Assembly: GCA_000165345.1 (NCBI GenBank)
Contig: CM000429.1
Location: 576,001-640,000, forward strand
Reading direction: 5' to 3'
DNA: 64,000 nt
Part shown: positions 6,312 through 63,791 of the stretch, piece after piece
How positions within the stretch are numbered: the stretch's first letter is position 1
How the letters are laid out: each line of letters begins with the position of its first letter
Program-made: the position numbers and the translations under genes
Notes under the pieces: generated by a model
The model's database searches: none
What the model was told of the DNA's origin: nothing
Seen by the model: the letters and a program-made list of their open reading frames with translations, nothing else

Positions 6312-6384
6312 TAGGAAGAACGGGAATCGAACCCGTGACCTCTTGCGTGTGAGGCAAGCGTCATAACCCCTAGACCATCCTCCT
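6312..6384 (-). tRNA. tRNA-Val (anticodon CAC)
   Basis: 73-nt cloverleaf on the minus strand: acceptor AGGAGGA/TCTTCCT (one G.U pair), D-loop AGGGGTTA, anticodon stem CTTGC/GCAAG with loop CTCACAC, T-arm ACGGG-TTCGATT-CCCGT, discriminator A, followed by a T-run (Pol III terminator). Confidence 0.85.
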
Positions 6385-34572: not shown

Positions 34573-35272
34573 TTAATCAAGCTTCAAGTTTAATGATAAC
34601 TTACCTCCAGGAATAGATCCTGTAATTTCTTCCATAGCTTCTGCATCTAGACTTTCTTGTAACATGGGAAGAATAAATGTAATTCCCAGAGAAACTGCAG
34701 AAATCAAGACTAGAGGGTTTTTCAATAGGGACAATAAGTTTTGAAGTCCACCGTAGTTATCACTTTCTGTTTTTGTCGAGTATAAGGGCTTTATATTCAA
34801 AACATAACTATTTACTATTGCACCTGGTTTTCCTGTTTTAAAATCAAAAACACTCTTTTTACAAACAAGTCTTGTTCCATCCTTAGATTCCTGTTCGGTT
34901 ATTTGTAGAATGTAGGAATCGTATACATATTCTGGTCCCAGAATTCTTAATAGGTATTCTCCTTTTGGTAAATTGTTGCTAAACAATAATTATACATTTT
35001 ATATAAATATGCACAACTTACATTTGAAAATGCCCAGACGAATTGGGATAAATTGGATGTTCTCTCCCGGTCAAATAAATCTGAGTTCTCATTAAAGAAG
35101 ATTCAGGAGCATCTACTTTTCCAAAAATATCCATCTTTTCATCGCAATACACAGTAGAAGTGTAAGAAAGGAATATAAAGCTGATTGAAAAAACAGTGAT
35201 AAGGAAATAATTAAGCTCAGTAGAAACTTACAAAAAGTACAAAAGAATAATTCTTGTCAAATTATTATTCAT
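34573..35272 (-). CDS. EMC7: ER membrane protein complex subunit 7-like (EMC7); join(complement(35232..35272),complement(35022..35180),complement(34573..34978)), introns of 51 and 43 nt
   Basis: Exon 1 MNNNLTRIILLYFF (signal/TM); introns GTAAGT...CAATCAG and GTAAGT...TTGTTTAG are in phase; the body GHFQINNLPKGEYLLRILGPEYVYD parallels EMC7's [25 protein letters not shown]; C-terminal TM helix. Confidence 0.65.
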
Positions 35273-36049: not shown

Positions 36050-36571
36050 TTAGTCGCTCAATTTGCCAGAATTTTCTTTAGACAAGTCATCTAGCAAACT
36101 TTTATATTCTTCTAAATGTTGTTTCATCTGATCTAAAAGTTGATTTTTTTCATTCACCTGCGCCTCTAATTCATCACAAATCTGGTGATAGGTTTGTATT
36201 ATTCTGAGCTTCTCCAATATATGGTTCATATTATTATATATTTTAATTATCTTCTTGACTGATGAAGTATCTACAACTCCCTTTCCTGAATTCTCCAAAA
36301 GTTTGAGTATTTCCATTTGAAACATTTCATTTAACATCATCAACTCCGCTGGCAAGTCAACATTGGATTCATTATACAAGATTGTGTCGCTATCTAACGG
36401 ATGAATTGAAATATCCGAAGAGAGCTGAGAGCCAAAGCAAGTAAAGGGCCCCTCAATGCAGGGAGGTGGCTTTATTTTTGCTACTTTGTCTTCATGATCA
36501 AAGAGACGGAAGTATGGTGGTGGAGGTGGAAAAGATGAAACTATATTTTGTTGGCCATTTGCATTATCCAT
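36050..36571 (-). CDS. MED7: Mediator complex subunit 7
   Basis: FPPPPPYFRLF...KPPP...FGSQ...I.PLDS motif pattern, and a C-terminal helical region matching MED7. Confidence 0.7.
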   Translation of the reverse strand: MDNANGQQNIVSSFPPPPPYFRLFDHEDKVAKIKPPPCIEGPFTCFGSQLSSDISIHPLDSDTILYNESNVDLPAELMMLNEMFQMEILKLLENSGKGVVDTSSVKKIIKIYNNMNHILEKLRIIQTYHQICDELEAQVNEKNQLLDQMKQHLEEYKSLLDDLSKENSGKLSD

Positions 36572-36799: not shown

Positions 36800-38310
36800 T
36801 TACCTACATGAGTCTAGAATGTATTTTGCTTTGAATCCGTAATTGCTTCTATAATCACTGGTTCCAGTGGACCAGGAAGAAATGGATGCAAGAAAATTAA
36901 AGCACTCTTCTGTATTATCGAAAAGGCCTTCTTGTGTAGCTATTTGATTGAGCATTTCGGCCCCAAGATGCTGTGAAATCAAGCATCTGTGATGGCAACA
37001 GGGGGACATTATTATAATAAGCATAGAACCACTTTTCATCTCTTTAATAGCGCTTTGAGATGATTTAAGACCTAAGTCGAATCCATTTCCGCACAAATGT
37101 TTAGAAATTACAAAAATCTTTAGAATTTTTTTTTTTGCAAAATTGTTAATTATAGTTTCTTCAAGCCTAAAATGCATCAATAAGTACATTTTTATAATGA
37201 TTTCAAGTGCTGAACTTACCTCGAAATATCAGGGCCACCTCCATTTGATAAAGTAGTCAAGATATATTTGAGTTCTTCTTTACTGAGTTGTTCAACTTCT
37301 TCAATTGTCTGAATTTGTTTTCCTGATGAATCATGCATCCATATTTTTTGCTCAAGTAAAGTACTAATAATCCATGGTACATTTCCATTTCCCAAACTTG
37401 AGTACATATGAGCTCTTATTGACTCTTTAGAAATGTCTTCATTGTTGCAAACCAAAATTAGAGAATTAATATCAAACTGTTCAATATCAAGTCTTAATCT
37501 GATGGAAGAAATAGATTCATCAAGCTTTTCCATTTGTTTCCTCCTTGACTCTCTGTCAATTATCACACTTCTAAATTTAGAAGGTTTAATCTTATTTTGA
37601 GGCTTTCCACATTCTTTAATGAACCAATAAGACAAAATTGCATTTCCAGCTCCATACTCTATTATTAAAGAGTTTTCAGCATCAAATAAGAGGTTGTTAT
37701 TTGAATTATTACAAGATATAGAGTTTTCACTATTAATTAGTCTCTTGGTGAATTCTTTGGAAATACTTATAGCTTGTAGTTCATGCCTATTCAAATTTAA
37801 ATTATCAATATCTACCTGTCTTGATTCAAAATGGGGGTTTTTACCAAATTCACGTACACAAAAATCATGAAGTTTATCAACAAATTCCAATCTTTCTTTT
37901 GAAACTATTAATTTTTTCTTGGAATCTGAATGATTGTTTTTATTCGCTTTTCGATTGATTTCTTCTATATGTGAAGTTTCAGTTACTTGTAATTTCTCTC
38001 TAATATTCAACAAGTTGTGAGGAGGCCCATTATTATGCATACAAAATGGCTGATTAAGTTCATATGCAATATCTCTAACTCTAGAGCACTTTCTAATATG
38101 AGATCTTATTTTATTTATAGAAACAAAATGTCTACCATCAATAAAACAAGGAATAATCTTGTTAACTAATTTTTCATGATTCTCATCACAAACTTGATCT
38201 TGTATTCCTTTGTGTAAGTTGCAGAAGTTAGAATCTCCATATCTAGGAAATTTGCAATTTCTAGATTTTGACTTTATAAAAAAAGTGCAAGTTTGTACCT
38301 GAATTTCCAT
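36800..38310 (-). CDS. TRM13: tRNA:m4X 2'-O-methyltransferase TRM13; join(complement(37220..38310),complement(36800..37166)), 53-nt intron
   Basis: N-terminal CHHC zinc fingers (C..FPRYGDSNFCNLH; CFIDGRHFVSINKIRSHIRKC), a methyltransferase core, and C-terminal HLCGNGFDLGL...CCHHRC; GTAAGT...CATTTTAG joins the two track ORFs in frame. Confidence 0.7.
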
Positions 38311-61618: not shown

Positions 61619-63679
61619 TTAAAAAGCTTCTTCCTTTTCAAATACATACTCATCAGAGTCTATTTCATCTTTTTCTGCTTGAACCTTTATATTTGACCCT
61701 TGTTCCATTCTATTTATAAACCACTTACAAAAAATGGAATTTAGTCGTTCTCTGAGTTTTTCTTCATCATTTCCCTCTAAAAAAGGATTAGAAAGATATA
61801 TTTTTAATTGTGTGATTTACCACACAAAACCTACCTAGTAAATCTGACAAATTTGTTGAATTCTCAGGATCGCATCTAGAAAGTATTTCAAATAGGCCAT
61901 TTTTAAATACTATGGAATCCGATCTCATCACCATAGATGCTAAGTTCTTGGAAATGATTGGGGAATATTTTTCTACCGAGCTTTTATAGTTAAATTCTTT
62001 GATATTAACAAGTTCCATTGGAAACTTAACTTGACAACCTTTCATTAAACTTTTTAACGATTGTTGAATAATTGTAGAAAGCCCAACATTGCTTTTCAGA
62101 CTACTCTTTCCCAAAGTACCATACTGAATTCCATGGCCTTTAACATTAATAAATAGAACTCTAATACTAAATTCAACCGTTGGAATTACCATTATTGGAA
62201 GTAAGAATTCACTCTAAAATTATTATAATTTAGATATTGTATTTTAATATATCGCTATTAAAATAGCTAACTTACCCCAGAAAATACTGAAAGTTTCTCA
62301 TGATTATTTTCTAATATTTCATCTTTTTTTGCCAATTTCATTCCAAAGATATTTCCTTTCTTTCTGATGAAGCTTTTAACTGATGTTACAATATCACAAT
62401 ATTCTGTATCTTTACAAATAATTGGCATTCCATTCGAAAAACGGTAAACGTAAAGATAGCCTGTCTTTAGAGAAGTTGTTTGAGATGTATTGGATATATT
62501 TAAGTTTGATTGGTTTTCTTTATCAACATTTTGATATTCAATATCATCTACTTGGTTTTCTTTTTTCACATGAAATTCTCTTAAAAAACCGAAAACTGAA
62601 TCAATCTTATATTTAGATCCTTTATTACTTGAATACCGAATAAAATTATCTTCAAAAATATCGAAAAATGATAAATTGATATTTCCTTTTATCAAATCAG
62701 AAGCATCCATTTTCATATTTGTTTCAAAGTTTAAGAAAATATGGCTATTCCAAAATTTAGAAAGTACCAAATAACTTTGAATCTTCTTAAGGCATGATTT
62801 TGCATAAAGTTCCATAGAAAAGTACTTCTCTTGTAAGTATTCTAGTCCTAAGCTCATTTTCATAGACACTGAGAATTCAGTTATCCAATCCCAATTGGTA
62901 TAATCAAAACTCTCACTATTCCCTACATAAAAAGATCCATCATTCAGGTTACAAAGCAGAGTAAACTCCCAAATCTTGTTTCCCATTCTCATCTTAACTT
63001 TAACGTTTCCTTCTCCATGTTGTGTAGCATAAAGTAATATCATTTTAAGGCCTACCCCAAATTGTCCTGTATAATAAGAATCTCTTTTATTTATTTTCTT
63101 ACTAAAAGATGAATCAGAATTAAAAATTTAATCAATCACTTTAAATACAATTAATATTTAAACTCACTTTGTTCCAAAAAGAGTTCCCAATAGGTCAATG
63201 GATTCTAAAGGTATTCCGCATCCTGTATCTCTTACAATGATGTTTATTCTTGCCTTAAAGTTCAAACCAATTTTAATAAAAAATCAAATTTATTAATACT
63301 AGTCCTGTATTTTACTTACCTGATCATCCAATTCTAAATTCTCAAAATTCACAGAGATTTCTATTTTTTTTGGAAAATCATGCCACTCTGCTTTTGCCTT
63401 ATTATTACATGCATCTATAGAGTTATCAAAAAGTTCCTAAATAAAAAAAATCAATCCAAATTAAACTAAAAGCTACATTGCAAATTAAATCTTATTTAAC
63501 TTACCTTGAAAGCCATAAAAGGAGCATTTTCTGAGTCAAATCCAGTAATCCCAATGTCTATAGAATCATAGAAAAGTTAGTTATTACTTGTAAATCCACT
63601 CAAAGAAATATATATTTCACAAAAGAATCACAAAAAACTTACTTTCTGAAAAGAAATTAATTGCTGAAATATTGGACAT
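61619..63679 (-). CDS. DNA topoisomerase VI subunit B-like GHKL ATPase, 7 exons: complement(join(61619..61776,61835..62213,62276..63101,63168..63253,63320..63436,63505..63557,63643..63679))
   Basis: Bergerat-fold motifs are spread over exons 3-5: ELFDNSIDAC (N-box), IIVRDTGCGIP (G1), LLGTLFGT.K, GQFGVGLKMILLYATQH (close to Topo VI-B GLGVKAAVLYSQMH). All six introns are 56-85 nt with GT(A/G)AGT donors and AG acceptors in phase; the exon 6/7 join (GTAGGT donor) is less certain. Confidence 0.6.
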
Positions 63680-63783
63680 TTTAGAAAAATATCTTTTTAG
63701 ATTGATGCAAATTATTTCTCTGATTCCACTTTTAATTAATATTTTTTCACACATTGGCTGTCAATTATGACTGTGGGGGCCCG

Positions 63784-63791
63784 TTGGCGCC
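63784..63791. promoter_or_regulatory. E2F-like site TTGGCGCC, about 105 bp upstream of the Topo VI-B-like gene
   Basis: As above. Confidence 0.4.

Follow-up and report, generated by a model that had tools for sequence, protein, structure and literature searches.

The minus-strand locus at positions 61619-63679 of a 64,000-nucleotide (nt) stretch of Cryptosporidium DNA (hereafter the window; contig CM000429.1 of assembly GCA_000165345.1, positions 576,001 to 640,000) contains a seven-exon gene for a 551-residue protein. The locus encodes the Cryptosporidium orthologue of the apicomplexan protein pTOP6B (putative TOP6B), which most likely acts as the B-type subunit of a meiotic Spo11 complex. 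As read from its motifs and profile matches, the protein is Topo VIB-like and not a true, canonical Topo VI-B; judged by comparison with its orthologues, the seven-exon gene is real and under purifying selection. The family, including its Cryptosporidium member, has already been described, and it is the correction of the gene model that is useful: the corrected 551-residue model is an annotation gain of practical value, not new biology.

On the minus strand, seven exons and six introns yield 1656 nt of coding sequence and 551 residues. This structure comes from an independent rebuild, which arrived at the same length as the product with six short introns proposed in an earlier note on this DNA. 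As that note remarked, the list of open reading frames (ORFs; translation table 11) holds only two fragments of the gene, 61788..62192 (134 residues) and 62267..63043 (258 residues), both on the minus strand. Its description of the introns as 'in-phase' was loose wording, the actual phases being 1, 0, 0, 2, 0 and 1. The parts of the gene, in order of transcription, are the following.

63643..63679, minus strand: exon 1, 37 nt; ATG at 63679-63677; codes MSNISAINFFSE, the beginning of the N-terminal strap.
63558..63642, minus strand: intron 1, 85 nt, phase 1, GTAAGT..TATAG, with an ACTAAC branch-like box.
63505..63557, minus strand: exon 2, 53 nt.
63437..63504, minus strand: intron 2, 68 nt, phase 0.
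63320..63436, minus strand: exon 3, 117 nt; N-box ELFDNSIDA (residues 31-39) at 63436-63410.
63254..63319, minus strand: intron 3, 66 nt, phase 0.
63168..63253, minus strand: exon 4, 86 nt; G1 box DTGCG (residues 78-82) at 63229-63215.
63102..63167, minus strand: intron 4, 66 nt, phase 2, GTGAGT donor; read-through gives AAG TGA.
62276..63101, minus strand: exon 5, 826 nt; G2 box GQFGVGLK at 63067-63044; G3-equivalent WDWITEFSV at 62893-62867; variable linker (residues 183-309); beginning of the transducer-like sheet, with RFSNGMP at 62443-62423.
62214..62275, minus strand: intron 5, 62 nt, phase 0.
61835..62213, minus strand: exon 6, 379 nt; remainder of the transducer-like domain and C-terminal helices.
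61777..61834, minus strand: intron 6, 58 nt, phase 1, GTAGGT donor; the least certain of the six junctions.
61619..61776, minus strand: exon 7, 158 nt; stop TAA at 61621-61619; last helix and acidic tail DSDEYVFEKEEAF.

All six introns run from GT to AG, measure 58-85 nt and have a GC content of 16-26%; the donors read GTAAGT (four), GTGAGT (one) and GTAGGT (one), and retention of any of the six brings in an in-frame stop. The product of exon 1 aligns with the ISxAEFF motif of Topo VI-B (SAINFF to SxAEFF), and the exon is also 37 nt long in Cryptosporidium chipmunk genotype I, C. bovis and C. andersoni. The position and phase of intron 1 are kept in three Cryptosporidium lineages, and the position of intron 4 in every Cryptosporidium lineage examined. 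The G2 box (residues 110-117) lies 5' of the first methionine of the 258-residue ORF, with no in-frame ATG ahead of it, and is thus translated only after intron 4 has been spliced.

The junction of intron 5 is the same in the C. tyzzeri UGA55 annotation. That annotation has an alternative intron 6 of 46 nt, with a GTAAAT donor 14 nt downstream and an acceptor 2 nt downstream, giving LLGRFCVGND against LLEGND in our product (one residue replaced by five). Because C. bovis and C. andersoni carry a consensus GTAAGT donor exactly where the 58-nt intron 6 has its own, the 58-nt intron was kept in the model. The acidic tail encoded at the end of exon 7 (61622-61702, residues 525-551) has a DSD[DE]Y.FEKEE motif common to the intestinal Cryptosporidium species; it is predicted to be disordered, with a predicted local distance difference test score (pLDDT) below 50, and the motif could be a short linear interaction motif.

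The closest database protein is the orthologue from chipmunk genotype I (89% identity, 551 residues). The C. ubiquitum orthologue also has 551 residues (86% identity), and those of C. canis, C. bovis and C. andersoni are 70%, 58% and 43% identical, respectively. For comparison of introns, annotated orthologue proteins were mapped back to their own genomic loci. Exon lengths in chipmunk genotype I proved identical to ours (37/53/117/86/826/379/158), and our introns 1-4 and 6 coincide in alignment column and phase with introns of chipmunk genotype I, C. bovis and C. andersoni. C. bovis also has intron 5, which C. andersoni has lost, and an extra intron found in both of these species was lost in the lineage of the present gene. 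By this comparison the ancestor of the genus probably had eight exons, and the intron richness of the gene would therefore be inherited, not recently gained. The intron set differs from that of Hepatocystis, with at most one position in common: intron 5 matches a Hepatocystis intron in column and phase. The alignment is weak there, so the match is only suggestive of an ancestral intron shared by the two.

The exons are 86% identical to those of chipmunk genotype I with zero indels, and the introns 68-85% identical with indels. Exonic differences at the first, second and third codon positions number 41, 30 and 154, a bias seen across all exons, and thus point to purifying selection. Gene order is also kept in chipmunk genotype I and C. 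andersoni (kinase, XAP5, the Topo VIB-like gene, V-SNARE, LSM, a 590-residue protein, Utp21), and the local order agrees with C. parvum cgd1_2960 to cgd1_2890.

Deposited annotations break this gene up. GenBank CP029780.1 (GCA_031892065.1; chromosome 1, C. parvum/tyzzeri clade), which exact look-ups of two window ORFs recovered and which is 100% identical over 6.2 kb, annotates the locus as three hypothetical genes (98, 258 and 134 residues), the first of which stops at the TGA that results from reading into the intron 4 donor. C. tyzzeri UGA55 (GCA_007210665.1), at 97.6% identity, has two genes (98 and 438 residues). Elsewhere in the genus, the C. ryanae model begins at an internal methionine and lacks the whole ATPase domain, the C. 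felis model is joined to the upstream XAP5 neighbour (832 residues), and one C. canis model includes a frameshifted stretch. The published forward primer for cgd1_2940 matches exactly at 63185-63206 in exon 4 and the reverse primer lies in exon 5, while both primers of the published cgd1_2930 pair lie in exon 6; the 551-residue gene therefore equals cgd1_2940 plus cgd1_2930. Together, the primer matches and the cgd1 gene order indicate that CP029780.1 derives from C. parvum or something very closely related. Each of the two reverse primers (cgd1_2930 at 61943-61963 and cgd1_2940 at 62969-62990) has a one-base homopolymer mismatch (AA vs. AAA and CC vs. CCC, respectively). These mismatches could be a text artefact, or could go back to homopolymer errors in the C. 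parvum Iowa II reference of 2004, which may in turn have helped to split the gene models.

Sexual stages dominate the culture around 72 h. In published quantitative polymerase chain reaction (qPCR) data, cgd1_2940 and cgd1_2930 are undetectable at 2-6 h, stand at about 1e-8 at 12-24 h and climb steadily to 1-2.6e-7 at 72 h (Mauzy et al. 2012). The two profiles are superimposable in shape and level, which supports a single transcription unit.

These results bear on the proposal that the seven-exon model is an artefact, concealing two or three small genes or a decaying pseudogene, which we regard as very improbable. Two GenBank annotations do break the locus exactly at intron 4, and the donors of introns 4 and 6 deviate from the GTAAGT consensus. 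Against this, the G2 box upstream of the 258-residue ORF's first methionine is conserved without change from C. andersoni through to Vitrella, chipmunk genotype I has the same exon lengths, intron positions are kept genus-wide, and the third-codon-position bias extends across all exons. The product can also be aligned over its whole length to Topo VI-B and to relatives from haemosporidians and chromerids, and the qPCR profiles of its two former halves coincide.

We next consider what family the product belongs to. The earlier note had looked to two Pfam families in the 551-residue translation, and only one of them was found: the sole Pfam match is the generic HATPase_c (E = 1.5e-10, above the cut-off), and the Topo-VIb transducer family (PF09239, Topo-VIb_trans) gave no match at E <= 1. 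The Hepatocystis and Vitrella proteins likewise gave none to PF09239 at E <= 0.01, and H2TH, NFACT_N and S13-type Pfam matches were absent from the Cryptosporidium, Hepatocystis and Vitrella proteins. Seven canonical Top6B proteins all match Topo-VIb_trans (E = 1e-45 to 1e-57) and have H2TH-type matches as well. In NCBIfam the best match is Top6B PRK04184 (E = 9e-19, residues 2-164 only), with Hsp90 next (E = 6e-6); the scores fall below the equivalog cut-offs, at 67.4 bits vs. 274 for PRK04184 and 45 vs. 380.7 for TIGR01052. In a search of PDB sequences with phmmer, only Topo VI-B chains fell below E = 1e-3, and no MutL, Hsp90 or MORC chain appeared at E <= 1.

A word-index profile search found no relatives beyond eight Cryptosporidium proteins. 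An exhaustive HMMER search with the Cryptosporidium profile gave 189 hits, with full-length relatives in Vitrella (E = 5e-51), Hepatocystis (E = 2e-43) and Chromera; the Hepatocystis protein VWU50243.1, named 'DNA topoisomerase VI, b subunit, putative', matches over positions 4-533 (E = 2.3e-43). Canonical Top6B proteins were matched in the same search through the GHKL domain only. When an alveolate family profile was aligned with a canonical Top6B profile by hhalign, residues 3-462 were paired with 20-492 (probability 99.8%, E = 8e-28), including RFSNGMPI with RFANKIPLL and YGTLGK with YKSVGKE. On this alignment, the transducer region is clearly, if remotely, homologous to that of Topo VI-B despite the lack of a Pfam match. 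The H2TH region corresponds to about 80 poorly aligned residues vs. about 160 in the canonical proteins. One further full-length relative, XP_053992779.1 (E = 2e-30), is annotated as Hylaeus volcanicus, a bee, and lies on a 2.76-Mb contig; it is more likely to be apicomplexan contamination, for example from a gregarine symbiont or parasite, than a bee gene.

The nucleotide-binding motifs are largely retained. The N-box ELFDNSIDA aligns with ELIENSLDA of Sulfolobus shibatae Topo VI-B and preserves the pattern of catalytic glutamate and magnesium-binding asparagine, and the G1 (DTGCG) and G2 (GQFGVGLK) boxes are both present. Residues E31, N35 and D38, D78, G80 and G82, G110, G113 and G115, and K409 are invariant across the family. 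K409, in YGTLGK (codon at 62108-62106 in exon 6), is invariant in 8/8 family sequences and aligns with the switch lysine of the canonical YKSVGKE. The G3-box glycine is absent, its position being taken by W170 in WDWITEF, and none of the Cryptosporidium, Hepatocystis or Vitrella sequences has it. The 'complete' Bergerat fold of the earlier note therefore holds for the N, G1 and G2 boxes but not for the G3 glycine, which is replaced, and the H2TH domain and the canonical transducer signature are missing too.

An AlphaFold2 model was built on the 89%-identical chipmunk genotype I orthologue, which has the same length and exon structure, using five sequences. The model is of moderate quality (pLDDT 63.5; predicted template modelling score 0.58), and all 15 of the top 15 Foldseek matches obtained with it are Topo VI-B. 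At the position of the H2TH domain it places, with moderate confidence, strands and a disordered stretch (residues 219-309). Its C-terminal helices are predicted at residues 411-436, 449-470, 474-487, 489-500 and 504-524; at this moderate confidence, they would be helices of 12-26 residues each and not one long helix.

Thus Topo VI-B comes first in the NCBIfam, PDB sequence and Foldseek searches, ahead of MutL, Hsp90 and MORC, the families that the earlier note had named beforehand as counting against its assignment. GyrB/ParE/Topo II ATPases, MutL/MLH1/PMS1, Hsp90 and MORC rank lower in every search and do not have the Topo VI-B N-terminal motif. It is accordingly quite unlikely, in our estimate, that the protein is a GHKL ATPase that has departed from the Spo11/Topo VI system, for example as a MORC/MutL/Hsp90-like chromatin or repair factor whose likeness to Topo VI-B is mere ancestry. 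Such a departure would suit the generic HATPase_c match, all that Pfam sees, and the database names of the orthologues ('histidine kinase/HSP90-like ATPase' or 'uncharacterized'). It sits poorly with the consistent rank of Topo VI-B above the alternatives, with the retention of the Topo VI-B-specific motif SAINFF and of the transducer motifs, and with the presence of one such protein per apicomplexan genome beside two Spo11 paralogues (PMC11302465). The Plasmodium orthologue is moreover reported to bind Spo11, according to the account given in the same paper. A second GHKL protein of the parasite with sexual-stage expression, cgd8_1610, is listed in the supplement of Tandel et al. 2019 and is distinct from the present gene.

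The closest known system is apicomplexan pTOP6B. Allen & Maxwell 2024 (PMC11302465), with C. ubiquitum as their representative of Cryptosporidium, reclassified the apicomplexan proteins as meiotic Topo VIB-like, with a GHKL domain that has N, G1 and G2 boxes and no G3 glycine, no H2TH domain, and several short helices bundled where the transducing helix would be. In their phylogeny these proteins form a separate clade outside the prokaryotic and eukaryotic TOP6B clades, and Apicomplexa, including Cryptosporidium, have two SPO11 paralogues and one pTOP6B, with no SPO11-3, RHL1 or BIN4. Our protein falls in the same orthologous group as P. falciparum TopoVIB and C. ubiquitum cubi_00287, and its architecture agrees (GHKL-like and transducer-like domains without H2TH), as does its full-length homology to the haemosporidian protein. 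The Cryptosporidium form is a compact 551 residues, whereas the haemosporidian and chromerid proteins have low-complexity inserts.

Canonical Top6B (S. shibatae 1mx0/2zbk, Methanosarcina mazei 2q2e and plant TOP6B) is the best sequence, profile and fold match. The Cryptosporidium protein shares with it the GHKL fold, N-terminal strap, N-box, G1 and G2, as well as the ribosomal-S5-like transducer sheet, the RF(A/S)N..P motif and the switch lysine. It differs in lacking the H2TH domain and the G3 glycine, in a transducer too diverged for PF09239, and, in the moderate-confidence model, in having several C-terminal helices of 12-26 residues where the canonical protein has one long helix. With MTOPVIB of Arabidopsis, TOPOVIBL of mouse and Rec102/Rec104 of yeast it has in common a predicted role as Spo11 partner and GHKL-like and transducer-like domains without H2TH. 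In those proteins the ATP motifs are degenerate or missing, and in the account of PMC11302465 meiotic Topo VIB-like proteins of other eukaryotes are without the N-box. In contrast, the Cryptosporidium protein still has N, G1, G2 and the switch lysine, and it comes up with Topo VI-B in ordinary sequence searches.

By analogy with Topo VI, we propose that the N-terminal GHKL domain would bind ATP, which would drive two copies to dimerise through the N-terminal strap. The switch lysine K409 would couple the nucleotide state to the transducer-like domain, and the C-terminal helices would hold a Spo11 subunit. The protein may in this way assemble or license the Spo11 dimer, leading to double-strand breaks as the zygote enters meiosis inside the oocyst. 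A meiotic, Spo11-partnering 'Topo VI-B-like' factor, put forward as plausible in the earlier note, agrees with the published placement of the apicomplexan proteins (PMC11302465). Of the two roles suggested there, meiosis fits better; endoreduplication is less likely, as the plant-type SPO11-3, RHL1 and BIN4 are reported absent from Apicomplexa. The C. parvum Spo11 genes cgd8_1350 and cgd3_2720 are enriched in female gametes, as are DMC1, HOP2 and HORMA. The expression of cgd8_1350 has a peak at 12 h, during asexual growth.

Several points weigh against a meiotic Spo11 subunit. ATP binding, Spo11 binding and the meiotic role itself are all proposed from conserved residues and from the mechanism of Topo VI. 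Fully conserved ATP-binding motifs are unusual for a meiotic Topo VIB-like protein and would fit a genuine topoisomerase equally well, and the Plasmodium pair is reported to have decatenation activity (as recounted in PMC11302465). Statements on helix length and on the absence of H2TH lean on the moderate AlphaFold2 model (pLDDT 63.5) and should be read as predictions. Finally, the gene, which is very weakly expressed, is not among the rows listed in the female-vs-asexual expression tables.

These points lead to the main alternative, that the protein serves as the ATPase subunit in a functional type IIB topoisomerase (a Topo VI-like decatenase or relaxase), paired with one of the Spo11 paralogues and acting on nuclear DNA in the rapid divisions of merogony or microgamont formation, a role of the kind claimed for Plasmodium TopoVIB/Spo11. 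It would explain why the N-box, G1, G2, N-terminal strap and switch lysine are intact and invariant across alveolate relatives and why the nearest solved structures are true Topo VI-B. The 12-h peak of cgd8_1350 is in line with it, as are the decatenation and radicicol sensitivity reported for the Plasmodium pair in the account of PMC11302465. We nevertheless consider it unlikely. The H2TH domain, the G3 glycine and the Pfam transducer signature are all absent; the published phylogeny places the apicomplexan proteins outside the TOP6B clades and SPO11-3, RHL1 and BIN4 are lacking (PMC11302465); and no transcript is detected at 2-6 h and very little at 12-24 h, the height of merogony, with the maximum reached at 72 h.

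A third role, in the organelle, has a precedent: for Plasmodium TopoVIB/Spo11, PMC11302465 refers to earlier reports of a mitochondrial role in addition to decatenation, radicicol sensitivity and Spo11 binding. The Cryptosporidium host has no organellar DNA, unlike its haemosporidian relatives. C. parvum is not known to have a mitochondrial or a plastid genome, and a Plasmodium-type mitochondrial role therefore cannot explain why the gene has been retained.

A more tentative idea, which we rate as possible but doubtful, is that the Cryptosporidium and alveolate proteins are a functional intermediate between true Topo VI-B and the degenerate Topo VIB-like proteins, that is, an ATP-hydrolysing, dimerising gate that controls Spo11 through its nucleotide state. 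If so, meiotic break formation would be ATP-gated, or the complex would keep strand passage on nuclear DNA, and C. parvum, without an organellar genome, would offer the cleanest setting for telling such activity apart from the mitochondrial role proposed for Plasmodium.

The gene model matters for practical work. With the split models, counts of meiotic genes, and expression or knock-out work done gene by gene, would miss or misassign a Spo11 partner. The 551-residue model makes the Spo11 complex testable in the now-tractable Cryptosporidium cross and knock-out system, and opens the Plasmodium 'Topo VI' controversy to study in a parasite that lacks organellar DNA. It also permits assessment of the ATP pocket as a radicicol-type target, although a role in meiosis only would limit its value as a drug target.

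The window is 33% GC and uses the standard genetic code. Its 25 uninterrupted ORFs of at least 200 residues span 72% of its length, and introns have been published for 10.8% of C. parvum genes, in keeping with the intron-poor genome described in the earlier note. Published intron-containing genes have 2-10 exons (mean 2.6). A six-intron gene is thus unusual in belonging to the upper tail, yet it lies within the published range.

Upstream of the gene we noted one group of candidate elements.

63773..63791: putative promoter elements, 94-112 nt upstream of the ATG; G-box-like GTGGGGG at 63773-63779 and E2F-like TGGCGCC at 63785-63791.

TGGCGCC is frequent in the window (12 strand matches vs. 0.66 expected). 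TGGCGCC(A) occurs at eight sites (9484, 25724, 36630, 38488, 48553, 52712, 61501 and 63785), most of them intergenic; one is found 106 nt 5' of the gene's ATG and another between its stop and the start of the V-SNARE gene. E2F-like and G-box-like motifs are, according to the literature, the commonest upstream motifs of C. parvum, and the E2F-like motif is tied to no particular expression pattern. The upstream E2F-like motif was for that reason rejected as a clue to the stage of expression.

Scans for tRNAs and Rfam families found nothing within or near 61619-63679; the sole RNA gene in the window by ARAGORN and Rfam is a tRNA-Val (CAC) at 6312-6384 on the minus strand. On the same strand, between 34570 and 38310, GTAAGT donors cluster at 34599, 35016, 35226, 36798 and 37214. 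A 364-residue ORF (37216..38310) ends at a donor and appears to continue into a 129-residue ORF (36800..37189), and a 137-residue ORF (34573..34986) seems to need an upstream exon. A few neighbours would thus carry one or two introns. The ORF at 36050..36571 may correspond to Med7, a gene listed for this region of the chromosome.

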